DNA from: Candidatus Altiarchaeota archaeon
GTDB taxonomy: Archaea > Altiarchaeota > Altiarchaeia > IMC4 > SCGC-AAA252-I15
Direction of reading: 5' to 3'
DNA: 26,538 nucleotides
Assembly: GCA_043813075.1 (NCBI GenBank)
Contig: JBDRLL010000002.1
Coordinates: forward strand, 1 to 26,538
Positions 1 through 12,099 of this stretch are shown here, piece by piece. The translations under genes were made by a program, and so were the position numbers. Numbering within the stretch: the first letter of the stretch is position 1; each line of letters starts with the position of its first letter. The notes under the pieces are model-generated. The model ran no database searches and was not told where the DNA came from. It saw only the letters and a program-made list of their open reading frames with translations.

Positions 1-341
1 GGTGCCTTAAGGAATCTATTGTACACCTCCGTCACGTCTCTAGGTGCATTATCCTTGTGAAACATTATGTGGTAGAACATCTGGTTTTCGTCAAGGTAGA
101 CTGCTCCCCCACCCACCTGCCTCCTATATACTGGCAGATTATGTTCCCTGCAGTATCCGACGTCTATCTCCTTCTCAAGTTCCTGGTGCATGCCTATGCA
201 GACGTATGGTTCGCTAGGGCTTAGTATCGATATAGTGTCCTGAGCACCATTGCTCACACTCTCTGCTACCGCATGGTAAATGGTCTGTGACCTCAAGGCA
301 GGCACGAGTCCCAAATCCAGTAAACGAACATTCCTCTTCAT
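1..341 (-). CDS. lplA: Lipoate-protein ligase (LplA/sLpl(AB)-like), N-terminal part only; runs off the window
   Basis: Absent from the ORF track. Manual translation from ATG at 341 gives MKRNVRLLDLGLVPALRSQTIYHAVAES...PYVCIGMHQELEKEIDVGYCREHNLPVYRRQVGGGAVYLDENQ..., which has the RRxxGGGAVY ligase motif. Starts 1 nt after the upstream stop. Confidence 0.9.
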   Translation of the reverse strand, partial: MKRNVRLLDLGLVPALRSQTIYHAVAESVSNGAQDTISILSPSEPYVCIGMHQELEKEIDVGYCREHNLPVYRRQVGGGAVYLDENQMFYHIMFHKDNAPRDVTEVYNRFLKA

Positions 342-342
342 C

Positions 343-1179
343 TTAAATCAGTGTTGTCGCTGAGTTCAACCCCATCGCAATGTACTCCACCCCCAAGAGT
401 AGTAGCAGTACCGCGCCAACGTATCTCGCGAACTTGAGCGCTGAACTCTCCATGTACTTATGAGCTACCGATACCGAGCCCCTGGCGAGCAGTATAAGCG
501 CGGTCGGCGGTATGAACGCTCCCACCGCGAATGCGAAGATGATCGCGACCGCCTTCGCAAGCGACAATAATATCCCTGCCGACATGGAAGCTGACGCGAT
601 GGCTACCGCGGATATGGGGGCCAGGAATATGCTCGCCTCTATCGTGCACACGAGTCCCGTCACCGTCCCCCACACCAGGTATTCCACTGGGTGGTTGACG
701 CTGAAAGTCGGCACCCTCACGCGCTTGAGTATGAATCCTGACACAGCCTCCCTCAATTCTATCAGCTCAAGAAGGTCTGCGCTTAACGCCACCATGAATA
801 CTCCCGCAACACCTATGGCATAGGGGGCGAGGATGAACGGCAGCATGCTACCCATGATTCCAGTGACCACACCCAACAGTATGAATGAGATGAAACGCCC
901 GACAGTGAATATGACGCTAGCATTGAACGCGGCCTTCACGTTCCCCTCTCCGCCTGCAATGTATGCTGCAAGTGGTACGCCGCATACCGGGCAGGACACA
1001 AGCCCGAAGAGCACGCCAAGCCACAGGGACCAGGCCGCAGACGTCCCTGCATGCGTCATCGCCTCCTGGATGTGCGGTTGCAGGCTGGAGACCCATACCG
1101 CCAGAAAACCCTTTAAATGGAGGATGACCGCTACTGCCACGAAAATCAGTATTCCCGCAAGGATTTTCCTACCGCTCAT
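343..1179 (-). CDS. CcdA/DsbD-like (DsbD_2/TauE-related) polytopic membrane protein with membrane cysteines
   Basis: Multiple hydrophobic helices, with motifs GLVSCPVCG, F.vGR...f..LG...G and GLVC. Start moved to MSGRK (1179), which overlaps the upstream stop by 11 nt. Confidence 0.65.
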   Translation of the reverse strand: MSGRKILAGILIFVAVAVILHLKGFLAVWVSSLQPHIQEAMTHAGTSAAWSLWLGVLFGLVSCPVCGVPLAAYIAGGEGNVKAAFNASVIFTVGRFISFILLGVVTGIMGSMLPFILAPYAIGVAGVFMVALSADLLELIELREAVSGFILKRVRVPTFSVNHPVEYLVWGTVTGLVCTIEASIFLAPISAVAIASASMSAGILLSLAKAVAIIFAFAVGAFIPPTALILLARGSVSVAHKYMESSALKFARYVGAVLLLLLGVEYIAMGLNSATTLI

Positions 1180-1999
1180 CTTTACTCTCTCCAGTCTTCT
1201 CATCAGGTTTTACCTCATCTACCTTAACTGGCTCGTATTTCTCCAGGTACATGTCAAGGTCTCTGAAACAGCTTACCACTAGCGACGACAATGATATGAA
1301 CCTCGTCTTAACCCCCTTCTGCCTTCCTATCTGGCTCATAAGGGCCTCGCATCCGGCGCAGGCTAGCGGACAGAGGTCTGCTCCCGTCCTCCCGGCGTCC
1401 AGCACCTTCTTCTCGGCGATAGCTGTCATGGTGCTGCCGTCAGAGCCTGCTCCGCAGCAGGTGTCCGGCTCGGACATCTCAACGTATGTGGCCCCCAAGT
1501 ATTCCACAATAGTCCTGTAGAGTTCTTCGACCTTGATTTCTGCCGTCCTCCTGAGGTGGCATGAGTGGTGTCCTGTTATCCTCACGATGGAGTCGAGCTT
1601 CTCGTCCACCAACTTGTCCAGATCCCCGTTTTCTATGAGCGCGTACAGGTATTCCATGATGTTTATCGGGTTGTAGCCGCGTTTGATGAATTCCTCGTGC
1701 TGTCCTAGGTATGCTGTGCATGCCCCGCAGACGAATAGGACGTCTTTTATACCAATACGGTTCATCTGGCTTAGGTTATACTCCATGCATTTCTCAGCCC
1801 CTTCCTCGTCTCCTATACCAATGGAGCCGTAGCCGCAGCACCTCTCGTTCGGTATGGTCTTGTACTCGTCGAGGACTCCCTTGTCGACGGCCTTGTCGAG
1901 TAGCGCATAGGTTGATGTCCTCATGGGCTTCAGCATCCTGGACGCGGTGCATCCTTCAAACAACAGCAGCTTCCTGGGCACATCCATATGTGAACTCAT
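1169..1999 (-). CDS. HdrB-like protein with two CCG domains
   Basis: Motifs EGC...RCCG...VCGAC and HHSCH...TCCG...ACAGC, i.e. two 5-Cys CCG domains. ATGA overlap with the upstream gene. Confidence 0.85.
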   Translation of the reverse strand: MSSHMDVPRKLLLFEGCTASRMLKPMRTSTYALLDKAVDKGVLDEYKTIPNERCCGYGSIGIGDEEGAEKCMEYNLSQMNRIGIKDVLFVCGACTAYLGQHEEFIKRGYNPINIMEYLYALIENGDLDKLVDEKLDSIVRITGHHSCHLRRTAEIKVEELYRTIVEYLGATYVEMSEPDTCCGAGSDGSTMTAIAEKKVLDAGRTGADLCPLACAGCEALMSQIGRQKGVKTRFISLSSLVVSCFRDLDMYLEKYEPVKVDEVKPDEKTGESKDER

Positions 2000-2598
2000 T
2001 TCTTCTTCCTCCTGAATTTGAGGCTCTTCCTTAACTCTTTTATCTCGTTTATCGCGTCACCGGAATCCTCGTTAAGCTCCTTGCGTTTAGCATTGTCCTC
2101 GAAGGGGTTGTAATACTGTCTTATCCTCTGTGCTTTTGTTATCCAGTTCCATGGGAGACTCAGGTCCTTGCCCTTTATCCTCCTCACCACAGCCTCGAAC
2201 GTGCGCTTCATCTGGGGGTTGGGTATCCCCGGAATGTATGCGATGCTCTCGTCCTCAAGCATCCTCTTCAACTCCGTATTGTATATTTCAGTGCAGAGTT
2301 CGTCGACCCCAAGGTGTCTTGGACATCTCTCAACACACGCGGCACAACCTGTGCACAACTCTATCCTACCCTTGATGGCGTCATCGTATCTCCCGCTCTT
2401 AACTGCAACCATCACGTCCTTGGGGCCTATATAACCTCCCTCTATCCCGACTACCGGGCATACCGCCCTGCACTGCTGGCACTCCATGCACAATACTGCA
2501 TTGCTCTTGTTTCTCAACACTATGTATAGTATCATGGCTAACGGCACCATAGTCAGCGTCGCCGCGATCCCTGAGGTTGCAATGTAGTTGAACGTCAT
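1996..2598 (-). CDS. Membrane-anchored HdrC-like 2x[4Fe-4S] protein
   Basis: N-terminal hydrophobic helix, then CMECQQCRAVCP and CTGCAACVERCP. Start moved to MTFNY (2598), 2 nt after the upstream stop. Confidence 0.8.
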   Translation of the reverse strand: MTFNYIATSGIAATLTMVPLAMILYIVLRNKSNAVLCMECQQCRAVCPVVGIEGGYIGPKDVMVAVKSGRYDDAIKGRIELCTGCAACVERCPRHLGVDELCTEIYNTELKRMLEDESIAYIPGIPNPQMKRTFEAVVRRIKGKDLSLPWNWITKAQRIRQYYNPFEDNAKRKELNEDSGDAINEIKELRKSLKFRRKKK

Positions 2599-2600
2599 TT

Positions 2601-3407
2601 TTACGGGAATCTCAGTATCCTCTTCGGGCATGCTTCCACGCACTTCATGCATTTTATGCATTCGGTGTCTGTTATGTTCCTGCCTTCCTGCGCGTATTTC
2701 TCCGCCACCAGCACGTCCATTGGACAGTTCTTCTGGCAGTTCAGGCATTTAACGCATGCATCTACCGTGCGTATGGGCAGTACATGATATTTTGTGAACA
2801 GTCCCATCAGCCCGCCGAGGGGGCAGAGGTATGAGCACCAAGTCTTCCTACCGTAGACCATCGCCAGGATTATCGTCAGCAAGAGCACCGGCACCGCAGT
2901 GTATATCATGTGCCCGGTCATGCCCTTGAAGACTGCTCCTGCAGGGCAGTAGTCGCAGAAGGCGGTGTACTCCACAAGACCTGCGAGTATCAGGACTCCG
3001 GATAGTATTATGAGCTTTATGGTGGGGTCCTTCAGTTCCCCAGGTATCTTATACCTTCCTCTTATCGGCGACACCCTCTCTGCAGCGTCTAGTATAAGTC
3101 CGTATGGGCACAGCCATCCGCAGAATAGCCTGCCGAATAGTATTGTTGACAGTAAGAACACTCCTATTATGATGAATGGCGACAGGACGAGCAGTCGTGT
3201 GGCTGGGTTAGCCAGGTCAACCCTCTCAAGCCCTATGAACAGGCTTGCCCCCCCGCCTCCAGTGGAGAACACGTCCTGCATGTGCCAGAACGGGTCCAGC
3301 CAGCAGACGCCCATAGGGCTATCATACAACAAGTATGTGAACCATATGGTTGCCACTACCGCAAGCGCTTGAAACACCCTCCTTAACGTGGATTGCTTCA
3401 CATTCAT
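2601..3407 (-). CDS. NapH/MauN-type membrane polyferredoxin
   Basis: Transmembrane helices with FCGWLCP, FCDYCP and WCSYLCP motifs, plus C-terminal CVKCLNCQKNCP and CIKCMKCVEACP. Confidence 0.88.
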   Translation of the reverse strand: MNVKQSTLRRVFQALAVVATIWFTYLLYDSPMGVCWLDPFWHMQDVFSTGGGGASLFIGLERVDLANPATRLLVLSPFIIIGVFLLSTILFGRLFCGWLCPYGLILDAAERVSPIRGRYKIPGELKDPTIKLIILSGVLILAGLVEYTAFCDYCPAGAVFKGMTGHMIYTAVPVLLLTIILAMVYGRKTWCSYLCPLGGLMGLFTKYHVLPIRTVDACVKCLNCQKNCPMDVLVAEKYAQEGRNITDTECIKCMKCVEACPKRILRFP

Positions 3408-3751
3408 TCTACCGTATGCTTATCCCTTTCAACAGGATCGTTTAGCCTGCTCAAAACCTTTGTCGGACATCCCTCAAGGCATAATCCGCAGAGGTCCCAG
3501 TCGAACATCTCTTCCTCACCCACCCATGAAAGGCAGACGCTCCTGTTTATTCCAGGGAATCCCTTGTCGTCCAGGTACATGGCCTGGACCGGACACTTGT
3601 TGATGCCGTAGTATTCCCTGGGGCAGAGTCCTTCAAAGGTGGTGGCGTCTTTCCTAGCCACCAGGATACCCACACCCACCACTACGATCAGCAGGAATAA
3701 TAGCCCCATCCACTTCCTCTGCCTTCTCCTAGTCTTGTCTCTTATCCTCAT
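3404..3751 (-). CDS. Small membrane-anchored ferredoxin-like protein
   Basis: Basic N-terminus, one TM helix, then LCP...KCPVQAM...CLSW...LCGLCLEGCP. Start MRIRD (3751) forms an ATGA overlap. Confidence 0.75.
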   Translation of the reverse strand: MRIRDKTRRRQRKWMGLLFLLIVVVGVGILVARKDATTFEGLCPREYYGINKCPVQAMYLDDKGFPGINRSVCLSWVGEEEMFDWDLCGLCLEGCPTKVLSRLNDPVERDKHTVE

Positions 3752-4380
3752 TTCTCCTTCCTGTACAGTAGCCTCGTCGGGCATACCACTGTGCATAATC
3801 CGTCTTCAATGCACTTCTCCCTGTCCACAACAGGCTTTATCCTCCCGTACTCTCCATCGTCTCTAACGAGTTCCAGCGCGTATACTGGGCAGATGGTCTC
3901 GCCCTGCCTGCCAAGCAGGCACCTCTCGAGGCCGTAGTTCCTCCCTGCTTTCACGGCATCCTTGAATGTCGGGTGGAATCTATCGCCGACCTCTGGGGTT
4001 ATTATGCTGGAGACTTTGTCTCCATTGAATTCCACTATGAACTGGGCGTCCTCGTCTTTGCCTATGAATATCCTCCCGTTCACGACCCTCTTGAACTTCA
4101 CCACGTGCCTGCCATCATTGTCATACGCGTAGACTGAGAGGAATTCACCTTCATACTCCCTTGTCACATTCTTCGTCATTGTTATAGTAATCCCCTTGTC
4201 TGTGACGTCGACTTTATAACTGTCCTTCGGGAATGGGGGTTTAACTTCCGGCCTTCCGGCGTACACGCTACTTATCCTTTTGCCGAGTATCGTGATGCCT
4301 CCTCCAGTCATGTTCTGCTGTGCCATCACGACCATGGCCAGCACGATTACTATGAAAAGCACAAGATTCTTCTTATTCAT
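3748..4380 (-). CDS. Signal/TM-anchored protein with an atypical C-terminal ferredoxin domain
   Basis: MNKKN plus a hydrophobic stretch and a beta-rich middle region. The C-terminus reads RCLLGRQGETICPVYAL...CIEDGLCTVVCP. Confidence 0.72.
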   Translation of the reverse strand: MNKKNLVLFIVIVLAMVVMAQQNMTGGGITILGKRISSVYAGRPEVKPPFPKDSYKVDVTDKGITITMTKNVTREYEGEFLSVYAYDNDGRHVVKFKRVVNGRIFIGKDEDAQFIVEFNGDKVSSIITPEVGDRFHPTFKDAVKAGRNYGLERCLLGRQGETICPVYALELVRDDGEYGRIKPVVDREKCIEDGLCTVVCPTRLLYRKEK

Positions 4381-4846
4381 TGAATTCACCATCATCTTTC
4401 AGATCCCTTATCACGTCTGTTATTGGTAGGTTGAGTGGGATGTTCTTCTCGCAAGCCCCCTCCAGCGGGTCGAATCTTGCGGCATCCTTGGCCTTCAGCT
4501 CCCGAACTTCTACCACAGTTTTTCCTGGAATCTTCTTTACCGCTTCTCCCGCAGTCATCCTCTCTCCATTGTACTCTATGGTCATGCCTGAGTCTGTGTC
4601 GTATGCTTCCCTGACTGTCAGCTGGAGGTTGCTCGCAGTCATGTACAAGTCCGGGTTGTTTGTGACTGCTGCAGTCATGTATGACGCGACGTCATACCCT
4701 AACGGGCAGTTCAGGTTGCACGCCCTGCATTGGTAGCAGGTCAGCGCCCACGGATGCCCGGACGCGAACGCAGTGTAACTGTAGAGCGCTAGGATTCCCG
4801 CTATCACAAGGAACGCCACCACATTGAATCTCCTGTTCGAATCCAT
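4373..4846 (-). CDS. Membrane-anchored [4Fe-4S] protein
   Basis: N-terminal TM helix followed by CYQCRACNLNCP. A degenerate second motif (GACEKNIP) lies near the C-terminus. Confidence 0.75.
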   Translation of the reverse strand: MDSNRRFNVVAFLVIAGILALYSYTAFASGHPWALTCYQCRACNLNCPLGYDVASYMTAAVTNNPDLYMTASNLQLTVREAYDTDSGMTIEYNGERMTAGEAVKKIPGKTVVEVRELKAKDAARFDPLEGACEKNIPLNLPITDVIRDLKDDGEFNE

Positions 4847-4849
4847 TTT

Positions 4850-5002
4850 TCACAAAAGGTACATCAACAGGCCTACGATGAGCCCGCCCATAATGCCTTC
4901 CGGGTTAACTGGGCTAACATTGAACGCTATGTTGAACATGACTCCAGTCAATACTCCAGTCCCCAGCATCAAACCCGCCTTCCTCTTTGACTCTTCATCC
5001 AT
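4850..5002 (-). CDS. 50-aa two-helix membrane microprotein (paralog B)
   Basis: MDEESKRKAGLMLGTGVLTGVMFNIAFNVSPVNPEGIMGGLIVGLLMYLL. ATG lies 2 nt after the upstream stop, and the stop lies 3 nt before the next ATG. Confidence 0.75.
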   Translation of the reverse strand: MDEESKRKAGLMLGTGVLTGVMFNIAFNVSPVNPEGIMGGLIVGLLMYLL

Positions 5003-5004
5003 CT

Positions 5005-5157
5005 TCAAAGTAGTGCTATGAGCAAGCCTACAACTATCCCGCCCAGTATGCCTCCCTTCTCGTTCCACTGGTGGTCTGTCGAAAGGTTTATCATCACGCC
5101 TGATGCAATCCCGACACCCACCGATACTGCGAACAGTGTTGCGCTGAAACCGACCAT
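5005..5157 (-). CDS. 50-aa two-helix membrane microprotein (paralog A)
   Basis: Absent from the ORF track. Manual translation gives MVGFSATLFAVSVGVGIASGVMINLSTDHQWNEKGGILGGIVVGLLIALL. It fills the gap with 1-nt and 2-nt spacers and resembles the neighbouring ORF. Confidence 0.75.
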   Translation of the reverse strand: MVGFSATLFAVSVGVGIASGVMINLSTDHQWNEKGGILGGIVVGLLIALL

Positions 5158-5158
5158 C

Positions 5159-6484
5159 CTATATGAACCCCACCCAACTTACTAGTAACGCGGCCACGCC
5201 AGTGCCTACCATTATGCCGACCTGCTGGGGTCTCCCTGAGACGCCCATAGGAGTACCGAGATTACCCTCGCCTATGCCTCCTATACCTCCTATCGGCGAC
5301 GGCCCGCATGAGGCGGCTGCATTGATTATGAACCCTGTCAACACGATGGGCACCGCCCACGCGTTACCTGTGACTTCGCTCAACCGGGTCCCGAACATCA
5401 GTACTCCCGGTATCAAGGCCATTCCTATTATCCTGCCGCACGGCATCGGGAGTATCGTCGGTATGTTCATGAGCAGCACAGCCACCCCAATGTATCCGAG
5501 GGGTGTTGAAGACATGCCTTCAAGCAACTGCATCAGAACGTCGAAGCTCCCGACCGCAACGAGGGCGCCTGCCATCACGAAGCCGGCTATCATGGCCATT
5601 ATCGGGTGCAGTATGACTCCTGCAATCAAGTCGTTTACAGACGTGTCTGAGATAACCATTATCGCCAACACTATCATCACGAGTATCGTCTGTATTGGTA
5701 CTGCGGGACGCAGTATGAACACCAGGGTTAAGGTCACCAGGAACATGCCGAGCGAGTAGTACCCTGACTTAGGTATCTCCTCCTTCTTCTCCTTCACCTC
5801 CTCAGCAGACTCCTCTATCCTTATCAGGCTCTCAGACGGCATGATGTTGTAGACGAACCTGACTGAAAGCATCGTAACCGCGGTTATTAGCATTATCGCA
5901 ATCTGCTGCACGTTGACAAAAGACCCGAGTTCATAGCCTCCCATGCCCTCCCCCACCATGCCTATGCCACCTATCGGCGATGGTCCGCAGGAGGCTGCGG
6001 CGTTGACTATGAACCCGAAGACTATTATGCTGGCGAGGAGCGGGTTCTTCTTCGCCTTCGCTATGTCGTATCCGAATAGTATGGCTGCTGGAATCAGTGC
6101 GGCAGCGATTATTCGGCCGCACGGCATTGCGAGTATGGTCGGCGTGTTCACGAGGACCACTACCGTCCCGGTTAGTCCGAGGGGTGTCTTACTCATCTTC
6201 TCGAGCAGGTGTATTGCCGCCCGGAATGCGCCCGCACTCTCCAGCGCCCCTGCCACCAGGAATCCGGCGATTAATGCTGTTATGGGATGCAGGTATAGGC
6301 TGGCCATCAGGTCTTTTATTCCCACCGCCTTGCCTGAGGCGAATGCGAGTATCACCAGTATTATGGATGATAGTATGAGTGCGGATTGTATGGGTAGGAT
6401 GTCTTGCGGTATCCACCCTCTCAGGGACGCTATTATGACTCCGAAGAATATCAGCAGTCCGACGAGTCCGAGCGGGTCTATCAT
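5159..6484 (-). CDS. Internally duplicated polytopic membrane protein, ion-transporter (IT) superfamily-like, with four symmetric cysteines
   Basis: 441 aa from MIDPL (ATGA overlap, GGAGG upstream). Two repeats 227 aa apart each contain LHPI..IAGF..AGAL, TPLG, MPCGRII and GFIxNAAASCGPSPIGGIG. Confidence 0.75.
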   Translation of the reverse strand: MIDPLGLVGLLIFFGVIIASLRGWIPQDILPIQSALILSSIILVILAFASGKAVGIKDLMASLYLHPITALIAGFLVAGALESAGAFRAAIHLLEKMSKTPLGLTGTVVVLVNTPTILAMPCGRIIAAALIPAAILFGYDIAKAKKNPLLASIIVFGFIVNAAASCGPSPIGGIGMVGEGMGGYELGSFVNVQQIAIMLITAVTMLSVRFVYNIMPSESLIRIEESAEEVKEKKEEIPKSGYYSLGMFLVTLTLVFILRPAVPIQTILVMIVLAIMVISDTSVNDLIAGVILHPIMAMIAGFVMAGALVAVGSFDVLMQLLEGMSSTPLGYIGVAVLLMNIPTILPMPCGRIIGMALIPGVLMFGTRLSEVTGNAWAVPIVLTGFIINAAASCGPSPIGGIGGIGEGNLGTPMGVSGRPQQVGIMVGTGVAALLVSWVGFI

Positions 6485-6852
6485 CCAAGCATCCTCCTTA
6501 ATCCTGTTGCCATTGTTCCTATCCTGTATGCTATCATCCTTGAGCCCACTTCCGTGATTCCCACACGCGACCCCACATCCATTCTGTCCATGCACACGCA
6601 GCAGGGACTAGTCTCGGCGCGGACGACTTCTCCATCATCAAGCCTTACTTCAACAGGCATGCTAGCTTTCCCATCCGCAAATCTTGATATCCCGCAGGAG
6701 CCGCATCCTACCGCGCAGGATCCTCCTCCAATGGAGACTATTGTCCCTGTCTTGCCAGGGAGAAACACTGTCCTGAAGTTGACGTAGAGCAGGTATGTCC
6801 CTGCCGCCACCAGCAGGGCGATGCAGCCCTGGTTCACCAGGTCGAGAAACAT
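6481..6852 (-). CDS. Membrane-anchored Cys-rich hypothetical protein
   Basis: N-terminal TM helix and a beta-rich domain with CAVGCGSC and PCCVC. Translationally coupled on both sides. Confidence 0.75.
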   Translation of the reverse strand: MFLDLVNQGCIALLVAAGTYLLYVNFRTVFLPGKTGTIVSIGGGSCAVGCGSCGISRFADGKASMPVEVRLDDGEVVRAETSPCCVCMDRMDVGSRVGITEVGSRMIAYRIGTMATGLRRMLG

Positions 6853-6853
6853 C

Positions 6854-7276
6854 TTATCCTTTAGAGTGTTTTGCGATCTCCGCCTTCTGCCATTCTACGG
6901 CGGCGTCGCCTTTCATTAGGTTCTTGAGTTCATCTGGGTTGGACATCTCAATCTTCACGATCCATCCGTCCCCATAGGGGCTGTTGTTTATCGCCGACGG
7001 GTCGTCGTACAATGCCTGGTTGACTCCGCTAACTTTTCCTGAGATTGGCGCATATATATCGCCAACCCACTTCTTGGTCTCCATGGTTCCTATCTTATCC
7101 CCCTGCTTTACCTCATCACCCTCGAAGGGCATCATCACATAGCTTATCTCGCCCGCCAGCTTTTGCGTGAAGTCTGTCGCACCGACCGTGCACGTGTTTC
7201 CATCTACCTTGGCCCAATAGTGTTCCTTATGGTAGTACAAGTCGTCCGGTAGGTTGTATCCCTCTATCTCAGCCAT
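6854..7276 (-). CDS. gcvH: Lipoyl-carrier protein, GcvH/LbpA family
   Basis: LYYHKEHYW, VGATDF, lipoyl loop ETKKWVGDIYAPISG and NNSPYGDGW. GGTGA ribosome-binding site upstream. Confidence 0.92.
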   Translation of the reverse strand: MAEIEGYNLPDDLYYHKEHYWAKVDGNTCTVGATDFTQKLAGEISYVMMPFEGDEVKQGDKIGTMETKKWVGDIYAPISGKVSGVNQALYDDPSAINNSPYGDGWIVKIEMSNPDELKNLMKGDAAVEWQKAEIAKHSKG

Positions 7277-7280
7277 CTAT

Positions 7281-7286: not shown

Positions 7287-7293
7287 TTCTTTA

Positions 7294-7306: not shown

Positions 7307-8138
7307 ATACTGGAGTGTATGCGTATGCTTTACCGAATGGTCTTGAGGATACTGGAGCTATCTTAGTGTATTCCTGTTCCACCAGCATATCCTCTGGTAC
7401 ATTGAAGTACTTGCAGAATCTCTTGATTATCCCCTCTAATTGTCTCCTGTCGTCGTCGGTGAACTCTTTCTTAGAGGCGTATGGCCCCAATAGTTCGTCC
7501 TTGACATCCCCCCTTATGAATATCTTCCCCCCGTGTATGCCTGAACCCAGATCTGTCTGAGCCAGGTCTCCTTCCGCAAGCCTTATCCTCCTGGCGTCTA
7601 TGTTGTTCTTGTCGACTGGCTTGCTGGGGTCTATCAACGCCCCGCTGAAGTCGAGCCCGAAGACGGTTATTATGCCGCCAGCCATGTATTCCCCGCAGTA
7701 CTGCTTCACCCTGCCGCCGTACACTATCTCAGGGATGTTGTCCTTGAACTCCTTCATGTGTATTCCTATCCTGGAGCCGCCGTTGCCCATGACGAATATG
7801 CTCCCCCCACGCGCTCCCATGCCTGTGATATCCCACGAGTCTCCGTAGACTATTATCCTGCCTGCGTTGAGCGTGTTCCCCAGGAGGTATTCGCTGCAAC
7901 CGTATACTGTTATCTTCGGGCCTTCGGCGAAGACTCCAAGGTCGAGGCCCGCATTCCCGTGCACGTCTATCCTCACGTCAGCCTTGATGCCTGCGCCTAT
8001 GAATCTCTGGCCATTCACGTTCTCAAGGACTATGTGGTCATATCCATCACTGACGGCCTTCCGGATTTTCTTGTTGAGTATCCTATAGTCCACCCACCCG
8101 TCCTCCGTCTTTGCTTGTATCGTGATTTTCTTGGTCAT
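7305..8138 (-). CDS. Glutamate synthase GXGXG-domain subunit (GltB domain 3/GlxC-like)
   Basis: VNGQRFIGAG, HGNAGLDLG, GSRIGIHMKE, GEYMAGG and GSGIHGG beta-helix repeats. Confidence 0.9.
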   Translation of the reverse strand: MTKKITIQAKTEDGWVDYRILNKKIRKAVSDGYDHIVLENVNGQRFIGAGIKADVRIDVHGNAGLDLGVFAEGPKITVYGCSEYLLGNTLNAGRIIVYGDSWDITGMGARGGSIFVMGNGGSRIGIHMKEFKDNIPEIVYGGRVKQYCGEYMAGGIITVFGLDFSGALIDPSKPVDKNNIDARRIRLAEGDLAQTDLGSGIHGGKIFIRGDVKDELLGPYASKKEFTDDDRRQLEGIIKRFCKYFNVPEDMLVEQEYTKIAPVSSRPFGKAYAYTPV

Positions 8139-8139
8139 C

Positions 8140-9669
8140 CTATTCTCCAGCGTGTCTTACGCCGAGTATCTCTGCTTCATGTGGGTTTGGCCCGATGTAT
8201 CTGAGCCTGCCCCTGTTGCCGACGAAGCTTTCAACCGCGTCTATGCCCATGATTCCGAGTACTTCCTCGAGCTCGGCGTGCCATGAGTTGAACAGGTTCA
8301 CTATCCTCTGTGTCGCCCATTCAACATCAACCCTCTTGCCGAGACGCGGGTCGCCTGTCGCTATACCCCAACTGCATAGTCCCCTATGGCATTGCTGGCA
8401 GACGGTGCATCCCATCGCCATCAGCACTGACGTTGATATCTGACCCACGTCCGCTCCTAGTGCGAGTATCTTGATGAGGTCTGCCGCACTCCTAAGCGAG
8501 CCGCCTGCGATAAGCGTCACCTTGTGCCTTATGCCTTCTCTCGTGAGGTGCTGGTCTGTCGCAGCTATCGCAAGTTCTATCGGTATCCCAGTGTTGTCTC
8601 TCACTATTCGCGGTGATGCTCCCGTTCCCCCGCGGAATCCGTCTATCGTTATGAAGTCCGCTTCCGCGTGCACTATCCCCGAGGCTATTGCGGGCACATT
8701 GTTTACTGCAGCTATCTTTACTCCAACAGGCACCTGGTAGTCGGTGGCCTCGTGGAGTGCGGCAATCAGCGTCTTCAAGTCTTCTATCGAGTATATGTCG
8801 TGTTGGGGGTTTGGGCTCAAAGCGTCAGTCCCGACAGGTATCCCCCTGGTGTCTGCTATCATCTCGTTGACCTTCTCCCCTGGCAGCTGCCCCCCATGGC
8901 CTGGCTTGGCGCCTTGGCCTATCTTTATCTCGAGCGCCGCCACATCCAGGTAGTCTGGCCCCACACCGAATCTACCGGAAGCCACTTCCGCGAGAACGTT
9001 CTTCCTGTAGGGCCTCAGGCTAACGTGCAGTCCGCCTTCACCTGTCCCCATCAGGGTCCCCAGCTTGTCGACAGCCCGTATCATGGATATGTATGCGTTG
9101 TATGAGAGTGATCCTAGGGACATGTGGCCTATGATTAACGGCATGAATAATGGCCTGTTTGGCGGCAGGTCTCCGACATTGAATCCTTTCTTGCCTTCCT
9201 TGACGTCTAGCCTGTCCAGCTTCTTGCCTAAATAAGTCTTCGTCTCGACAGGCTCTCTTAACGCGTCTATCGACGGGTTAGTCACCTGGCAGGCGTCCCA
9301 TACTAGGTTGTCGAATACGAATGGTTGCGGCCTGTCGTTCCCCATTCCAGTCAAAAGTACTCTGCCAGTCCTCGCGTTCTCGTATATCACCCTGTGGTGC
9401 CATTCACTCCAGTTGGCGTGGGGAGAATACGAGTTGGGGTGTATGCCAACTGTGATCGCGTCTTCAGGACAGTATATCGAGCAACGCTGGCAGGCGACGC
9501 AGTTCCTCGTGTCGTACACGTACGGCTCCCTCTTCTGGTCGTCCCATCGGATGCAGTCGTAGGTGCAGTTTGTAGCGCACCTCTTGCACTTACTGCACTT
9601 GTCCAGGTTGATTTCGCATCTAAACTTGGGGAGGACGGTGTCCTGTATGTTCTTCAGCTCCTTCTTCAT
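8140..9669 (-). CDS. gltB: Archaeal-type glutamate synthase FMN-binding subunit with N-terminal 2x[4Fe-4S] domain (GltB domain 2)
   Basis: CSKCKRCATNC and CVACQRCSIYCP, then MSLGSLS, GTGEGG, VASGRFGV, EIKIGQGAKPGHGGQLPGEKV, HDIYSIEDL, DGFRGGTGA and CTVCQQCHRGLC. Confidence 0.93.
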   Translation of the reverse strand: MKKELKNIQDTVLPKFRCEINLDKCSKCKRCATNCTYDCIRWDDQKREPYVYDTRNCVACQRCSIYCPEDAITVGIHPNSYSPHANWSEWHHRVIYENARTGRVLLTGMGNDRPQPFVFDNLVWDACQVTNPSIDALREPVETKTYLGKKLDRLDVKEGKKGFNVGDLPPNRPLFMPLIIGHMSLGSLSYNAYISMIRAVDKLGTLMGTGEGGLHVSLRPYRKNVLAEVASGRFGVGPDYLDVAALEIKIGQGAKPGHGGQLPGEKVNEMIADTRGIPVGTDALSPNPQHDIYSIEDLKTLIAALHEATDYQVPVGVKIAAVNNVPAIASGIVHAEADFITIDGFRGGTGASPRIVRDNTGIPIELAIAATDQHLTREGIRHKVTLIAGGSLRSAADLIKILALGADVGQISTSVLMAMGCTVCQQCHRGLCSWGIATGDPRLGKRVDVEWATQRIVNLFNSWHAELEEVLGIMGIDAVESFVGNRGRLRYIGPNPHEAEILGVRHAGE

Positions 9670-10796
9670 AGCAGGCTCACCTCATCGAGCGGAGCGCCCT
9701 GCCCCCTGGATTTTATCCCCTTTAAGCTTGCTATGACTGGTACTCCAGGATTTGGCTGCCAGTAGTCTCGCGTGTCGGTGGCTGTGCGTATCGAAGATAG
9801 TTCGCTTGCGGCATAAAACATGTTCCTACCTTCCTCATAGGCTGCTATAAGCGGCCTCAGCTTCTTCCGGTCTGTGTGGACTATCATCGTTGGCTCAGGA
9901 TTGTCTGTCGTCACTACGATAGAGAAGGGGCCGTTGGCTAGAGCGCTCTTGTATGTCTGTCGTATGTGCGTCATCCACCTCCTCCTCTTGGTGTCCATGT
10001 TGTTGATGTCCCTCCAGTATGGGGGAGCCATAGCGGTTGTCGCTATTTGGTGTGCGATAGTCTTCGGGTATCCGCTGCACCTGACTATGTAATCGAAGAT
10101 GTATGCCAGGACTTCAGTGTCTGTCCTCAGCATGCACTTGTATCCTCTCTCCTCCAGGTAGTTCACGTTTGTCCCGTATGATGTTATCTCTCCGTTGTGT
10201 ACGACCGACGTCCCCAGAAGGTTAAATGGGTGCGCCCCACCCCACCATCCGGGCGTGTTTGTCGGAAATCTTGAGTGTGCCGACCACATGTAGGCCTTCA
10301 TATCATCGATCTTGTAGAATTCCGCGATGTCTGCCGCCCATCCGTTGCCTTTGAAGACGCCCATGTTCTTCCCGGAGCTCATGCAGAATGCCCCGTCTAT
10401 GTTCGCGTTTATGTGCATCACGACTTCCTTGATGTGTTCGTCTGGATCTGGCCTCTTGGTGTTCACGAAGAACCTCCAGACTTGCGGCGGGTTCACTATC
10501 CCGTCAGTCTCCTGTGTGGGAACTTCTTCGTCGTGCGCCACGTAGGTCGCCTCATTGAGGTATTCCTCAACCCGGTTTCTTGTCGGCTCGGTGCCCGGCA
10601 CCTCTTCGAGAAGTACTTGTATGCAGTAGTCGTCTTCATGCTTTGGGAATATCCCGTAGGCGGCAAACCCTGCTCCAAGGCCGTTTTCACGCTCTTTCTG
10701 TAGTCTTATCATGTCTGCGACCTGTTTTCCTGGGACTGGCTTGCCGTCCATGTTCAGTAATGCTGCTATCCCGCATGCTTCAAATAACCTGTCCAT
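9666..10796 (-). CDS. Class II (Ntn) glutamine amidotransferase subunit of split glutamate synthase (GltB domain 1/GlxB-like)
   Basis: ACGI at the N-terminus, ERENGLGAGFA, HSRFPTNTPGWWGGAHPF, HNGEI, TDTEV, NGPFS and DRKKLRP. Confidence 0.9.
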   Translation of the reverse strand: MDRLFEACGIAALLNMDGKPVPGKQVADMIRLQKERENGLGAGFAAYGIFPKHEDDYCIQVLLEEVPGTEPTRNRVEEYLNEATYVAHDEEVPTQETDGIVNPPQVWRFFVNTKRPDPDEHIKEVVMHINANIDGAFCMSSGKNMGVFKGNGWAADIAEFYKIDDMKAYMWSAHSRFPTNTPGWWGGAHPFNLLGTSVVHNGEITSYGTNVNYLEERGYKCMLRTDTEVLAYIFDYIVRCSGYPKTIAHQIATTAMAPPYWRDINNMDTKRRRWMTHIRQTYKSALANGPFSIVVTTDNPEPTMIVHTDRKKLRPLIAAYEEGRNMFYAASELSSIRTATDTRDYWQPNPGVPVIASLKGIKSRGQGAPLDEVSLL

Positions 10797-12099
10797 CCTT
10801 CTTCTTCTTTGCTGATTCGATTATCTTCATTATCTTCTCAGGGTCTGCCGGCTTGACCGGCTCCATACCCAGCCTGCGTCTTATCATCTCGTTCTGCCGC
10901 ATCCCGTATCCTGTGGTCAGTATCATGTCCATCTTCAGGTTGACTGCTTCAGGGGCCTTACCCCTTTCTACGGCTATCTCACGCAGCTTCAGGAAGAAGT
11001 CTTTCAAGCCTATGTTGTTTGGGCATCTTGACAGGCATTTACCACACTGTAGGCAGTGCCATATCATTGGATCCTGAATGGCTTCATCTAGCTTGCCTTC
11101 CCTTACCATCTCCACTATCGTCAGCGGGTCGAACTTCTTCTCAGAGTTCTCAGTAATCCTGGCTTCAGTGCACTCTAGCCTGCATGCCTCGCAGTGGCTT
11201 ACCAGGTCGATGTAGTCAAAGTACTTCTTGACCTCTTCGATGTTCTTCTCCTCCTCGTACTTGATGCCCAGCTTCTCCATAACCGGTTGAACGCTGGTTG
11301 CATGCAGGTTCAATGCCATGTCTTCAGGGCTAAGTCCCAGTGCCAGTCCGATGAGCTCTGTGATGTAGAATACTGGTATCGCGTGTTCTCGCATATCCTT
11401 TGATAGTCTGTCGAACTGTAGGAAGCATGTTGGGCATGCTGTTACCATACAGTCAGCGTTCTGTTTCGCGCTCTTTAGCTTGTTTTCAAGTAGCCTGTCT
11501 GATTCCTCGGTGTTGAATGCTGCTATGGGGACTCCGCAGCAGTCCATCTTGTTCTCGTATTCTGCGCTTTCAGCCCCTAGCGTCGTTATCATCTCGTCTA
11601 GTGAGACGGGCTTGTCAGGGTGGTCGCTCTTCACTGCCTGTGGCCATAGTGCGTGGCACCCGTAGTGGGCTGCAACCTTCAGGCCTTTAAGTGGTTTTTC
11701 GACCTTGTTTTGTATGAGCTTGCTCTTGTTGTGCAGTACTTCCATTATGTGTTGTATGTTAACGTCCTTCGCGTATCTCTCGCCTTCTGGGAGTGAGTTG
11801 TTGATTTCATCCCTTTTTTCCGGGTATCTCAGTTCTTTCCTCGCTTTTTCGAACGTGTTGAAGCATCCGCTGCATGCGACTATCATCTCATCTCCTGCCA
11901 GCGCCATGTTCCTTGCGCTTAGTGCTAGTGCAGCGTTGTGGTCGTATGCTTTCGCGGATACTGGATCCGGGCAGCATGTCCATCCGTCTATCTCCCTCGT
12001 CTCAATGCCTATCTTTTTTAGGACTAGTCCTGATGTCTTGATCAGGTAGGGCAGTGTGTTGCTTATCGTGCACCCCCAGTATATTGACGTTTTACCCAT
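10780..12099 (-). CDS. Heterodisulfide reductase-like HdrB-HdrC fusion protein
   Basis: HdrB part: YWGC, TCCPDP, ACSGC, HYGCH, CCG, ACPTC. C-terminal HdrC part: CEACRLEC...IWHCLQCGKCLSRCP. GGAGGAG ribosome-binding site at 12101-12107. Confidence 0.88.
   Translation of the reverse strand: MGKTSIYWGCTISNTLPYLIKTSGLVLKKIGIETREIDGWTCCPDPVSAKAYDHNAALALSARNMALAGDEMIVACSGCFNTFEKARKELRYPEKRDEINNSLPEGERYAKDVNIQHIMEVLHNKSKLIQNKVEKPLKGLKVAAHYGCHALWPQAVKSDHPDKPVSLDEMITTLGAESAEYENKMDCCGVPIAAFNTEESDRLLENKLKSAKQNADCMVTACPTCFLQFDRLSKDMREHAIPVFYITELIGLALGLSPEDMALNLHATSVQPVMEKLGIKYEEEKNIEEVKKYFDYIDLVSHCEACRLECTEARITENSEKKFDPLTIVEMVREGKLDEAIQDPMIWHCLQCGKCLSRCPNNIGLKDFFLKLREIAVERGKAPEAVNLKMDMILTTGYGMRQNEMIRRRLGMEPVKPADPEKIMKIIESAKKKKDGQVI

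Follow-up and report, generated by a model that had tools for sequence, protein, structure and literature searches.

A 17-gene archaeal operon that probably concatenates an HdrB-HdrC-linked glutamate synthase, a lipoyl carrier with its ligase, and a cysteine-lined membrane module

[quoted passage not shown] A second point of reference is the F420-dependent glutamate synthase, for which an FrhB-like fourth subunit has been described. Here, we describe an operon from an uncultured archaeon of the Altiarchaeota that unites three gene sets that usually live apart and that offers a testable lead on how such archaea supply electrons for glutamate synthesis. A note made earlier from the DNA alone knew of no characterized system with this composition, and our literature search likewise turned up none. 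We interpret the operon, with a probability of roughly 0.6 for the explanation as a whole, as a lineage-specific concatenation of three separately conserved units linked by thiol/disulfide chemistry rather than as one ancient machine.

Layout of the operon

The window (the whole stretch of 26,538 nucleotides that was analyzed) contains 17 consecutive minus-strand ORFs that run from position 12099 down to position 3 (Table 1). When the longest ORFs are used, the 16 junctions measure, in order, −17, −4, +1, +28, +1, −115, +1, −64, +3, −23, −49, −4, −148, −4, −35, and +1 nt; 15 of them are overlaps or gaps of no more than 3 nt, and the sole exception is the 28-nt gap. Start codon analysis indicates that, with internal starts, four long overlaps would shorten to −4 or +2 nt. 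This ORF listing and junction recount confirm the packing described in the earlier note, and the AT-rich spacer that it placed ahead of the operon is present as well, at 76% AT versus 47% for the operon. The spacer contains TATTTAAA at −35 and −123 relative to the ATG, GGAGG precedes the start of the first operon gene, and no T-runs of 6 or more occur on the coding strand within the operon. Because the genes are so tightly packed, we predict that all 17 very probably form one transcription unit. Position 1 of the window coincides with the end of a contig in an Altiarchaeota MAG (completeness 89%), and lplA is therefore truncated by the assembly. Pfam assignments agree with the gene and domain content stated earlier, including the lack of gltD, hdrA, and gcvP/T/L domains among the 17 operon products.

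Table 1 Features of the operon and its upstream spacer, in the direction of transcription
Feature	Position	Strand	Basis and remarks
Upstream spacer, candidate archaeal promoter	12100..12263	-	164 nt, 76% AT
HdrB-HdrC fusion, 439 aa	10780..12099	-	Pfam 2x CCG + Fer4_8
Glutamine amidotransferase class-II subunit, 376 aa	9666..10796	-	Pfam GATase_2, GATase_6, GATase_7
Ferredoxin-domain + FMN (Glu_synthase) subunit (FdFMN), 509 aa	8140..9669	-	Pfam Glu_synthase 412 bits + N-terminal Fer4
GXGXG beta-helix subunit of glutamate synthase, 277 aa	7305..8138	-	Pfam GXGXG 74 bits
GcvH-like lipoyl carrier, type A clade, 140 aa	6854..7276	-	Pfam GCV_H 134 bits
p123, N-terminal TM helix + small beta domain, invariant CxxC	6481..6852	-	Alignment
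Permease, ion-transporter-superfamily fold, 441 aa	5159..6484	-	Alignment, structure model; start ATG at 6484
sm50, 50-aa single-TM peptide	5005..5157	-	ORF
sm72, single-TM peptide	4850..5068	-	Probably ≈52 aa, start near 5008
p157, N-terminal signal-anchor, CxxCxxCxxxCP motif, ≈100-aa domain	4373..4846	-	No Pfam match
fer215, N-terminal TM, beta-sandwich middle domain, C-terminal Fer4	3748..4395	-	Pfam Fer4_7, Fer4
fer130, basic N-terminus, TM helix, ferredoxin-like Cys motifs	3404..3796	-	Weak Fer4 matches
NapH/MauN-type membrane polyferredoxin, 268 aa	2601..3407	-	Pfam Fer4_5 66.8 bits
HdrC2, TM-anchored HdrC-type di-cluster protein	1996..2748	-	Pfam Fer4_8
HdrB2	1169..1999	-	Pfam CCG x2; NCBIfam matches
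CcdA/DsbD-type thiol-disulfide membrane protein	343..1203	-	Pfam DsbD_2 29.1 bits; CPVC within TM helix
LplA, N-terminal 113 aa, cut by contig end	1..341 (domain hit 3-341)	-	Pfam LplA-B_cat

The HdrB-HdrC fusion and the split glutamate synthase

In the fusion that begins unit A, a complete HdrB carrying two CCG domains leads into an HdrC-type di-cluster domain. The HdrB part aligns over its full length with the solved methanogen HdrB in the PDB (E = 2.6e-50), with the CCG-motif cysteines visible, and the fusion scores 211 bits against NCBIfam TIGR03288, under the 345-bit cutoff. The translation of the amidotransferase subunit shows an ACGI motif at residues 7 to 10, and orthologs of FdFMN (66–83% identity) are found in 11 other Altiarchaeota genomes. 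In all 10 other fusion-bearing Altiarchaeota genomes, counting two (G013 and G015) in which the fusion reads as two pieces, split or frameshifted, hdrBC lies directly upstream of the amidotransferase, FdFMN, and GXGXG genes; two more genomes, with an FdFMN 66–67% identical, end at a contig edge at the expected hdrBC site and were left unscored. The identical four-gene order recurs in two Thermoplasmatota MAGs (loci L082 and L127). The functional tie between fusion and glutamate synthase claimed in the earlier note is thus borne out by adjacency in 11 of 11 Altiarchaeota carriers, the source genome included, as well as in these two MAGs.

Five genomes of family f1 have no hdrBC match and encode an FdFMN that is only 51–53% identical; in these genomes, an additional gene separates the FdFMN and GXGXG genes. 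At L212, the sole f1 locus run through Pfam, the additional coding capacity corresponds to a Fer4_11 protein and a Pyr_redox_2/Rubredoxin_C flavoprotein. With a ferredoxin and an NAD(P)H-type flavoprotein in place of hdrBC in these five genomes, alternative electron-input modules appear to occupy one locus in the Altiarchaeota. Since the fusion is a constant neighbor of the glutamate synthase (GOGAT) genes and is replaced in this way in relatives that lack it, we consider it likely, with some confidence, that the fusion serves this enzyme as its electron-input subunit. The source genome yielded no GltD-type Fer4_20 domain, and its only CCG-domain proteins are the two HdrB-type gene products of the operon. 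Electrons would pass from the noncubane clusters of HdrB through the HdrC clusters and the N-terminal ferredoxin domain to FMN, which would then reduce 2-iminoglutarate formed with glutamine-derived ammonia.

The lipoyl carrier and the membrane module

Unit B comprises a type A carrier, of the kind kept by most Altiarchaeota without the glycine cleavage T protein, and its own two-domain LplA. The GcvH tree has three clades; the operon copy falls in type A, where it nests among sequences of families other than f1, and apart from the glycine cleavage-linked copy of the same genome. The lipoyl-lysine, K69, is invariant across the 12 aligned type A sequences, and no invariant Cys is present among them. 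GcvH is found in 46 of 61 Altiarchaeota genomes and GcvT in 15, all of family f1, with GcvH-like genes occurring without GcvT in 33 genomes. The LplA fragment is 80% identical to residues 2 to 112 of the 353-aa, two-domain LplA in which the operon of the closest relative, G050, terminates, and the end of contig C38 matches residues 109 to 352 of that protein. A second, canonical GcvH is encoded on contig C8 of the source genome with gcvT, gcvPA, gcvPB, lipA, lplA/lplB, and lpdA. This complete set, with its own LplA, LipA, and LpdA, supports the earlier view that the operon GcvH and LplA are dedicated paralogs, and because such a housekeeping set sits elsewhere, the operon pair resembles the logic of sHdr systems. 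GcvH-like genes adjoin Hdr genes in three other arrangements (G024 L117, G062 L208, and G063 L209). Type A GcvH tracks neither the fusion nor the membrane block, because it is also present in G006, G021, and G024, where neither was found.

The 11 genes of unit C center on an elevator-type permease lined with cysteines and on p123, its partner with a CxxC motif. They further encode a pair of mini-TM peptides, three ferredoxin-like proteins anchored at their N-termini, the NapH-type polyferredoxin, HdrB with an HdrC anchored in the membrane, and the CcdA/DsbD-type protein. The permease is internally duplicated, and each half has an invariant MPCGR and AASCGPSPxGG at a hairpin tip or helix break; in the alignment and model, four invariant Cys and two invariant Arg occupy these positions. 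Foldseek searches with the structure model (pLDDT 82, pTM 0.82) retrieve ArsB (TM 0.64/0.71), VcINDY, NaS1, and Pho90, and the match to Pfam CitMHS (23.3 bits) is under the 31.9-bit cutoff. The modeled fold is that of a secondary transporter (ArsB, DASS) and not of a recognizable redox pump, which speaks against the possibly ion-coupled membrane complex of the earlier note. No recognizable ion-pumping redox subunit was found among the operon products with Pfam or NCBIfam. A thiophilic solute is the most likely substrate of the permease, which probably does not pump ions to conserve energy. Its partner p123, which has no Pfam or NCBIfam family, adjoins it in at least 40 of 80 genome loci. Relatives of this two-protein core are spread across bacteria and archaea (127 genome and 138 metagenome stretches) and are present in many anaerobic bacteria, where the neighbors are PsrABC-like molybdoenzyme genes, multihaem cytochromes, an FMN_bind-Fer4 protein, a TAT-signal NHL protein, and DsbD_2.

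Among the remaining components, HdrB2 has ten invariant Cys and is nearest to the HdrD, TfrB, and LdhH type, and the polyferredoxin scores 106 bits against NCBIfam napH, under the 213-bit cutoff. Start codon analysis and the N-termini and lengths of homologs place the start of HdrC2 probably at 2598 (≈200 aa); that of fer130, which has homologs in eight Altiarchaeota-type loci, is probably at 3751. The fer215 model (pLDDT 77) has no significant PDB match. The N-terminus of p157 reads RRFNV, with TRREFMG in Thermoplasmata homologs, a motif that makes p157 a candidate for twin-arginine export. Homologs of sm72 come after the permease in 14 loci; its paralog sm50 ends in GGIxGGxxVGLL, as does the C-terminal extension of bacterial permease homologs. 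Ten of 61 Altiarchaeota genomes contain the block, which is collinear in L008 to L016 and stands alone in the eight genomes other than the source and G050; within family f1, only 2 of 21 genomes, including the source, have it. Thermoplasmata versions of the block include NapH-GltD fusions.

Linkage of the units and comparison with known systems

The full arrangement is found in only 2 of 61 Altiarchaeota genomes, the source genome and its close relative G050, whose proteins are 50–83% identical. Of 80 genome loci that surround the permease, two contain GOGAT genes, two gcvH, and one lplA; in 80 metagenome loci, the counts are zero, one, and zero, with the full arrangement in none. Neither set supports conserved linkage of the membrane block to gltB1-3, hdrBC, gcvH, and lplA, the lack of which the earlier note named as refuting its proposal. 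Outside the source genome, ten Altiarchaeota genomes have the GOGAT-hdrBC module, and in nine of them the fetched locus (4 kb or more of downstream sequence in at least five of the nine) contained neither block genes nor gcvH. Partial pairings do occur, counted with the proviso that kin genomes are non-independent observations: a type A gcvH lies directly upstream of the block, without GOGAT, in G025, and gcvH and block are 4.5 kb apart in L132 and ≈11 kb apart in G031. The block and hdrBC-GOGAT lie 3.7 kb apart on one strand in the Thermoplasmata locus L082, close together in G061 (completeness not established), which has no GcvH above the Pfam cutoff, and ≈94 kb apart on the complete Methanomassiliicoccales-type chromosome G062.

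These distributions bear directly on the proposal of a single 17-subunit system, in which protein-bound lipoamide would serve both HdrB proteins and shuttle electrons between glutamate synthase and an ion-coupled membrane Fe-S complex. Tight packing downstream of one spacer, retention of the arrangement in G050, the restriction of CCG proteins in the genome to the operon's two HdrB-type genes, the bracketing of the membrane block by gcvH and lplA, the second co-location of block and hdrBC-GOGAT in a Thermoplasmata MAG, and the NapH-GltD fusions all favor it. We nevertheless consider it unlikely, given that the modules are separate in nearly all other genomes, that the big membrane protein has a predicted secondary-transporter fold, that no ion-pumping redox subunit is recognized, and that type A GcvH also occurs in genomes without these modules. 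Its gene content, its HdrBC-GOGAT tie, and its dedicated GcvH/LplA pair stand, but its conserved linkage and ion-coupled complex are not supported. Alternatively, the membrane module could take up, reduce, or detoxify a thiophilic solute (sulfane sulfur or polysulfide, selenium, arsenic, or a soft metal) through its own HdrB2C2, NapH, and DsbD electron path, functionally independent of the glutamate synthase and joined to the nitrogen-assimilation module merely by gene transfer or shared regulation, with the GcvH/LplA pair serving the membrane module or a general redox role. The invariant Cys and Arg at the tips and breaks of an ArsB/DASS-like fold, the redox neighbors of bacterial permease-p123, and the solitary blocks of eight other Altiarchaeota genomes agree with this alternative, and the rarity of the block in f1, together with a GcvH that nests with other families, fits acquisition by transfer. 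The Altiarchaeota block, however, encodes no substrate-specific enzyme, TusA and DsrE were not found in the source genome, and the proximity of block and hdrBC-GOGAT in a second phylum is hard to put down to chance alone; we regard functional independence as possible, if somewhat unlikely.

The fusion could also lack a thiol-oxidizing site and, as a subunit of the SdhE, GlcF, or GlpC type, simply transfer electrons through Fe-S clusters or serve in membrane docking; its electrons would then come from ferredoxin or a membrane carrier, and glutamate synthesis would not involve the lipoyl carrier. CCG proteins also function without disulfide substrates, and the NCBIfam matches include the SdhE membrane anchor (155 bits), GlcF, GlpC, and LdhH types, which weakens the disulfide-substrate reading. 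Nine of the 10 other Altiarchaeota genomes with the four-gene module have no adjacent gcvH, and G061 has no clear GcvH. This alternative appears rather doubtful, however, as the best matches of the fusion are to true HdrB over its full length, and at least one GcvH-like gene is present in all 11 fusion-bearing Altiarchaeota genomes, a count that is not independent of phylogeny. In the concatenation of three units that we prefer, thiol/disulfide redox chemistry would provide the link. For the dithiol that HdrBC would oxidize to drive glutamate synthesis, the strongest candidate so far is the lipoyl/dihydrolipoyl couple of the carrier, which could be rereduced by the HdrB2C2 of the membrane module or by LpdA from contig C8. 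We propose only tentatively that at least one HdrB uses the lipoyl carrier as a substrate; a complete lipoyl shuttle between units C and A is plausible but, on balance, improbable.

The operon shares with sHdr-LbpA sulfur oxidation systems two HdrB/HdrC sets and a GcvH-like lipoyl protein with a lipoate ligase next to it. Such a system is nonetheless highly improbable, and we reject it: HdrA is absent from the operon and was not found by tblastn of the genome, neither TusA nor DsrE was found in this 89% complete assembly, the ligase has two domains in G050 and not one, and one HdrB/HdrC set demonstrably travels with the glutamate synthase. Moreover, LbpA has two typical, conserved cysteines that are missing from the operon carrier. 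The place of the fusion in its module instead resembles that of the FrhB-like subunit in methanogens and that of the ferredoxin and Pyr_redox flavoprotein pair in other Altiarchaeota.

Operon layout and the contig edge

The window corresponds to contig C2 of G000, a MAG of 1.80 Mb in 41 contigs that is 89% complete, and its first base is the contig end. The nearest relatives of its proteins bear Altiarchaeales or Altiarchaeota names. Seventeen open reading frames follow one another in series on the minus strand, from position 12099 down to that edge. With the longest reading frames, the 16 junctions measure −17, −4, +1, +28, +1, −115, +1, −64, +3, −23, −49, −4, −148, −4, −35, and +1 nt. The tight packing described in the earlier note is therefore borne out, with 15 junctions that overlap or leave no more than 3 nt between genes, and a single one of 28 nt; four of the long overlaps shrink to −4 or +2 nt with internal starts. 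The spacer 5′ of the operon is 164 nt long, has an AT content of 76% compared with 47% in the operon, and carries TATTTAAA 35 nt 5′ of the ATG. Inside the operon, the coding strand has no T runs of 6 or more. Pfam and NCBIfam recover every domain that had been named from the sequence and, in agreement with the same reading, no GltD, HdrA, or GcvP/T/L domain among the 17 products. The existence of the operon is thus confirmed, and the full set of 17 genes recurs in unchanged order in the closest relative, G050 (locus L088), with protein identities of 50–83% across the operon.

The last operon gene in G050 encodes a two-domain LplA of 353 amino acids. Beyond it lie an HTH regulator on the opposite strand and then a gene that, from its translation, resembles glutamate dehydrogenase; on its 5′ side, the G050 operon is flanked by a gene for a paralogous regulator and one resembling thioredoxin reductase. 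The suggestion that lipS, lpdA, or hdrA might lie past the left edge of the window finds no support in this relative, where none of them follows the operon. The lplA fragment at the end of C2 corresponds to residues 2–112 of the G050 LplA (80% identity), and the end of a second G000 contig, C38, corresponds to residues 109–352 (58% identity). Because C2 and C38 match consecutive parts of the same protein, C38 is probably the continuation of the operon lplA, across a join that is unproven. The last 24 codons of C38 and a 15-nt overlap differ from C2, which had suggested that C38 carries a separate lplA paralog; this reading was dropped after comparison with the G050 LplA.

Coordinates of the operon units, of their surroundings, and of related loci in this and other genomes
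Feature	Location	Strand	Content
Glutamate synthase unit	window 12099–7305	minus	hdrBC fusion, gatase, Fd-FMN, GXGXG
Carrier gene	window 6854–7276	minus	gcvH (type A)
Membrane module	window 343–6852	minus	p123, permease, mini-peptides sm50 and sm72, p157, fer215, fer130, NapH-type polyferredoxin, HdrC2, HdrB2, DsbD_2 protein (dsbD2)
Mini-genes of the membrane module	window 4850–5157	minus	two adjacent paralogous genes for single-TM peptides ending GGxxGGxxVGLL
Ligase gene	window 3–341	minus	lplA, cut by the contig end
Remainder of the window	window 12264–26538		seemingly ordinary housekeeping genes: NAD-dependent epimerase, GGR-like flavoprotein, SMC, MFS transporter, two PMT_2 glycosyltransferases, three proteins without Pfam match; GDP-mannose-dehydratase-like and TATA-binding-protein-like proteins (translations only)
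Genes past the presumed lplA end	G000 C38:20795–25095		320-aa gene resembling a response regulator; next, an opposite-strand PAS-type histidine-kinase-like gene and a 563-aa glutamate-synthase-FMN-domain-like protein (all from translation only)
Second glutamate-synthase-like set	G000 C36:41797–44563		gene order different from the operon's: 295-aa GATase-like protein, 220-aa protein that is GXGXG-like by translation, 407-aa FMN-domain protein without ferredoxin domain and 39% identical to the operon's FMN protein
L117	G024 C17:1–13652	one strand, except last gene	[FeFe]-hydrogenase, HdrA-MvhD fusion, HdrC, HdrB, radical-SAM/BATS protein, LplA, GGR-like flavoprotein, small LplB-like protein, second LplA, two more radical-SAM proteins, an uncharacterized protein, type B GcvH; then a DsbD_2 gene on the opposite strand
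L208 (Thermoplasmatota MAG)	G062 C1:1179000–1198000	one strand	gcvH-hdrC-hdrB-hdrA; near it, an lplA-like gene and another gcvH-like one (identity to type A 52%)
L209 (Thermoplasmatota MAG)	G063 C39:18000–36000	one strand	gcvH-hdrC-hdrB-hdrA

The HdrB-HdrC partner of glutamate synthase

The best-supported new point of our analysis is a glutamate synthase variant that two archaeal phyla conserve and in which the input subunit is likely of Hdr type. This is narrower than the model of the earlier note, in which a lipoyl carrier would shuttle electrons between glutamate synthase, via the HdrB-HdrC fusion (HdrBC), and a possibly ion-coupled membrane complex. The FMN/synthase and GXGXG domains are both present (Pfam Glu_synthase, 412 bits; GXGXG, 74 bits), and the amidotransferase subunit scores 41.7 bits against GATase_2. 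Its cysteine lies at position 8, in ACGI, and removal of a propeptide would therefore be needed for a catalytic N-terminal Cys. Residues 1–277 of HdrBC align end to end with a solved methanogen HdrB (E 2.6e-50), with the CCG-motif cysteines present, and the fusion has the two CCG domains with the C...CC...CxxC pattern of ten cysteines. Ten invariant cysteines are also seen in HdrB2, the HdrB of the membrane module, in alignment A3; these two are the only CCG proteins of G000. Both score below the 345-bit equivalog cut-off of TIGR03288 in NCBIfam, HdrBC reaching 211 bits and HdrB2 20.7 bits.

HdrB-like matches are found in 28 of 61 Altiarchaeota genomes, and the full-length B-C fusion in G000 and ten others, in two of which it reads as two pieces. 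In all ten, the fusion lies directly 5′ of the gatase, Fd-FMN, and GXGXG genes in the order of the window, and two Thermoplasmatota MAGs (L082 and L127) share the identical four-gene order. The full-length fusion is rare in the protein collection, where about 29 clusters cover at least 93% of the query and the next matches are unfused HdrB. There are hints of two more contigs with the fused arrangement, as the longest contigs of matches P0002 and P0123 are equal in length (9234 bases), and so are those of P0004 and P0124 (9147 bases).

Orthologs of the Fd-FMN protein with 66–83% identity occur in 11 other genomes. Because the Fd-FMN locus of G020 and G021 breaks at a contig end exactly at the expected hdrBC site, these two genomes cannot be scored for the fusion. 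A second form of split glutamate synthase is found in five genomes of the Altiarchaeota family f1 (L212–L216, in G042, G048, G044, G046, and G034), in which the Fd-FMN protein is 51–53% identical, no hdrBC match is present, and an extra gene stands between Fd-FMN and GXGXG. Pfam was applied to one of the five, L212, where the extra region encodes a Fer4_11 protein and a Pyr_redox_2/Rubredoxin_C flavoprotein. Because alternative redox modules occupy the same locus and no GltD-type domain was found in G000, the HdrB-HdrC fusion is likely the electron-input subunit of the glutamate synthase. Among split archaeal glutamate synthases, only the F420-type enzymes have a known or proposed electron donor; an HdrB-HdrC partner that is conserved in two phyla and replaced by a flavoprotein/ferredoxin pair in relatives is a concrete candidate for the input module, accessible to expression and assay.

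The permease-centered membrane module

The membrane module is an uncharacterized, widespread unit. Relatives of its permease, all unnamed, occur in many archaeal and bacterial lineages at 35–88% identity. The permease is internally duplicated, and the motifs MPCGR and AASCGPSPxGG are invariant in each half. In an AlphaFold model (pLDDT 82, pTM 0.82), the motifs fall at a hairpin tip and at a break in a helix, and the predicted fold is the two-repeat hairpin fold of the ion-transporter superfamily, with a Foldseek probability of 1.00 to ArsB, VcINDY, NaS1, and Pho90. ArsB is the best structural match of the model (TM 0.64/0.71), followed by the other three in that order. Atlas neighbors of the permease are SLC13 and CitMHS clusters; its score against Pfam CitMHS is 23.3 bits, for a cut-off of 31.9 bits, and NCBIfam contains neither a model nor a curated family for it. 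This module had been regarded as a possible ion-coupled redox unit, a view that the modeled ArsB/DASS-like fold disfavors, since the center of the module would be a transporter and not a pump.

We compared the permease neighborhoods in the 80 best of 127 confirmed genome stretches. In at least 40 of these best 80 of 127, p123, a small TM protein with an invariant CxxC, is encoded 5′ of the permease. No Pfam or NCBIfam family matched the permease-CxxC pair, and a suspected likeness of p123 to RseC was dropped, as Pfam searches with 30 family members gave no RseC match and no consistent family. Over the stretch that their contigs cover, the Altiarchaeota loci L008–L016 are collinear with the window from p123 through dsbD2, and the block is found in 10 of 61 Altiarchaeota genomes. 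The Thermoplasmata version consists of hdrC2-hdrB2-p123-permease and a NapH-GltD fusion. At L032, L034, L037, and L038, the block ends in this fusion of 748 amino acids, which combines a NapH-type membrane domain (Fer4_5) with GltD-like Fer4_20 and Pyr_redox_2 and would be a membrane-anchored NAD(P)H-type oxidoreductase.

Bacterial loci combine the permease-p123 core with DsbD_2, an FMN_bind-Fer4 protein, multiheme cytochromes, a fumarate-reductase-like flavoprotein, and PsrABC-like genes. In MAGs of Zixibacteria, KSB1, Syntrophales, and other bacteria (L040–L051 and L064–L087), the pair lies 3′ of a TAT-signal NHL-repeat protein and 5′ of the FMN_bind-Fer4 protein, a NapC-type multiheme cytochrome, the flavoprotein, and the PsrABC-like genes; this set is a conserved, uncharacterized respiratory-type cluster. 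In bacterial homologs, a segment similar to the mini-peptides of the window forms a C-terminal extension of the permease itself. Judged by their N-termini, p157, fer215, and fer130 have what look like signal anchors, and the Thermoplasmata p157 has the motif TRREFMG; we infer that these three proteins may be extracytoplasmic. A model of fer215 (pLDDT 77) has no PDB match at E ≤ 0.001, the best being FN3-like at E ~0.1. The polyferredoxin contains Fer4_5 (Pfam, 66.8 bits) and scores 106 bits against the NapH model TIGR02163, which has a cut-off of 213 bits. Taken as a family, the permease-CxxC pair is widespread in anaerobes, with what would be an unusual all-cysteine substrate site.

The lipoyl carrier, its linkage, and known systems

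The glycine-cleavage genes gcvT, gcvPA, and gcvPB sit with another GcvH on contig C8 of G000, in a canonical set that also contains lipA, lplA with a small lplB-like gene, and lpdA. Because this set has its own gcvH, the operon GcvH is a paralog. The operon carrier scores 134 bits against Pfam GCV_H, and its best PDB matches are all GcvH; the operon ligase shares 35% identity with the LplA of C8. Three supported clades emerge in a tree of 24 GcvH sequences, from which the copies of L100, L103, L108, L114, L120, L121, and L123 are absent because they were lost or truncated in ORF calling. One comprises the glycine-cleavage-linked GcvH of G000 and G050; the genes of a second (type B) lie 3′ of lplB-lplA and radical-SAM genes; and the third (type A) has 12 rows, including the operon copy. 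The lipoyl-lysine K69 is invariant in the 12 type A sequences (alignment A2), in which no cysteine is invariant and the one Cys, at position 29, is confined to the G000 and G050 copies.

Of 40 genomes in families with the type A clade, 0 are positive for GcvT, and GcvH is present in 46 of 61 Altiarchaeota genomes compared with 15 of 61, all f1, for GcvT. The 33 Altiarchaeota genomes that carry GcvH-like genes and no T protein therefore point to a role for these genes outside glycine cleavage. In genus g16, the neighborhood of the type A gcvH is housekeeping and uninformative. The locus L117 appears to unite a hydrogenase-Hdr cluster with genes for lipoate assembly and for a lipoyl carrier. A GcvH without T protein, together with GcvH-Hdr neighborhoods, would extend a noncanonical role of lipoate beyond the aerobic sulfur oxidizers, and such neighborhoods bear on the old question of what the Hdr enzymes of non-methanogens reduce.

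The earlier note had taken, as its own test, the co-occurrence of the membrane block with gltB1-3, hdrBC, gcvH, and lplA, and conservation of this linkage is not supported. Among the best 80 of 127 genome loci, glutamate synthase genes lie near the permease in 2 (L008, which is G050, and L082), gcvH in 2 (L008 and L013), and lplA in 1; the corresponding numbers for 80 metagenome loci are 0, 1, and 0, and the lone gcvH is 4.5 kb off on the opposite strand. The four other Altiarchaeota loci with at least 8 kb of 5′ sequence have none of the three near the permease. In nine of the ten fusion genomes, the fetched locus contains no gcvH or membrane-block gene, at least five of the nine having at least 4 kb downstream, and on the complete chromosome of G062 the hdrBC-glutamate synthase genes and the block are ~94 kb apart.

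Partial combinations also occur. In G025, a type A gcvH directly precedes the block without glutamate synthase genes; in G031, a gcvH is within ~11 kb of the block; and at the Thermoplasmata locus L082, the block and the hdrBC-glutamate synthase genes are 3.7 kb apart on one strand. Type A GcvH is present in G006, G021, and G024, where neither the fusion nor the block was found, and G061 has both modules and no GcvH detected above the Pfam cut-off. Within f1, the fusion and the block occur only in G000 and G050, and the operon GcvH nests among sequences of other families. This distribution and nesting fit gene acquisition by transfer together with the building of a composite operon.

Established are the genes that make up the three units and their conservation, the fold of the permease, and the paralogy of carrier and ligase; beyond these points, an electron path can be proposed. 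Electrons would probably pass from HdrBC to the ferredoxin domain of the FMN subunit. HdrBC might in turn oxidize the dihydrolipoyl group of type A GcvH, and the carrier might be re-reduced by HdrB2C2 or by the LpdA encoded on C8. The potential of lipoamide, ~−0.29 V, is near that of NAD(P)H, ~−0.32 V, and lipoyl-driven chemistry is feasible because of this closeness. This phylum would not be expected to have coenzymes M and B. The idea of a lipoyl shuttle is alive, in that GcvH-like genes are common without glycine cleavage and adjoin Hdr genes; conserved linkage of the units does not back it. We give a probability of only about one in five to its broadest form, in which lipoylated GcvH is the dithiol/disulfide partner of Hdr-type enzymes in anaerobic archaea free of CoM and CoB (Altiarchaeota and some Thermoplasmatota), HdrBC makes glutamate synthase dihydrolipoyl-protein-driven, and the permease/NapH/HdrB2C2/DsbD module is a new type of complex that links re-reduction of the carrier to a thiophilic solute or to a redox partner outside the cytoplasm. 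The literature searched yielded no characterized counterpart with this composition, no description of an Hdr/CCG-glutamate synthase cluster, and nothing on lipoate in Altiarchaeota.

Several known systems share parts of this composition. Within HdrBC, residues 6–277 align with HdrB and residues 300–420 with HdrC of the methanogen HdrABC (PDB 5ODC and 8RVU), and both CCG motifs are complete; in contrast to HdrABC, the two form one chain here, with B ahead of C. A search of the 89% complete G000 genome (tblastn with Altiarchaeota HdrA-MvhD) found no HdrA, MvhD, or hydrogenase.

In its modeled two-repeat fold with hairpins, the permease resembles the ArsB, DASS/VcINDY, and SLC13 elevator transporters. 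It differs from them in that the positions of the substrate site would hold invariant Cys and Arg, and in its pairing with a CxxC protein and redox genes. For the NapH/HdrB2C2 part of the module, the comparators are the NapGH-type quinol dehydrogenases and NapH-MauN family, and the membrane HdrD-type complexes HdrED and DsrMK. As in these, a NapH-type polyferredoxin adjoins anchored ferredoxin-like proteins and an HdrC and HdrB pair that resembles a split HdrD; the module here, however, has no NapAB, cytochrome b, or DsrM, scores below the family cut-offs, and is accompanied by a permease and by a DsbD_2 protein.

The sHdr-LbpA system of sulfur oxidation described by Cao et al. (2018; PMC6067878) likewise joins Hdr-type B and C genes to those for a lipoyl protein that resembles GcvH and for a lipoate-protein ligase dedicated to it. 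The operon has such a ligase in the cluster, and its carrier has the conserved lipoyl-lysine and is, like that of the sHdr system, a paralog of the housekeeping GcvH. In that description, LbpA has two conserved cysteines, near the N- and C-terminus, that are missing from GcvH, and the sHdr ligases are single-domain proteins; the type A carriers lack both cysteines, and the operon ligase (in G050) has two domains. The sHdr core hdrC1-hdrB1-hdrA-hyp-hdrC2-hdrB2 is not reproduced, as the 17 products include no HdrA-type domain and G000 gave no tblastn match to HdrA-MvhD. The sulfur transferases TusA, DsrE, and rhodanese accompany sHdr clusters according to a second account (10.1101/2023.12.18.572138); in the 89% complete G000 genome, PF01206 (TusA) and PF02635 (DsrE) have 0 matches. 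LipS1/S2 were not found. The organism is, moreover, anaerobic, and its cluster includes a glutamate synthase. We therefore rejected membership in the sHdr-LbpA group, on the lack of HdrA, TusA, and DsrE, a carrier without the LbpA cysteines, and a two-domain ligase. Because no hydrogenase was found in the 89% complete G000 either, and carrier and ligase differ from their sHdr counterparts, sHdr-type sulfur oxidation is unlikely in this organism.

The closest published analogue of the glutamate synthase unit is the F420-dependent glutamate synthase with its FrhB-like fourth subunit. Like this and other archaeal split glutamate synthases, the operon has separate amidotransferase, ferredoxin-FMN, and GXGXG genes clustered with a fourth gene that would supply electrons. 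It contains no F420-type or GltD-type module, however, and the fourth gene is an HdrB-HdrC fusion in place of FrhB.
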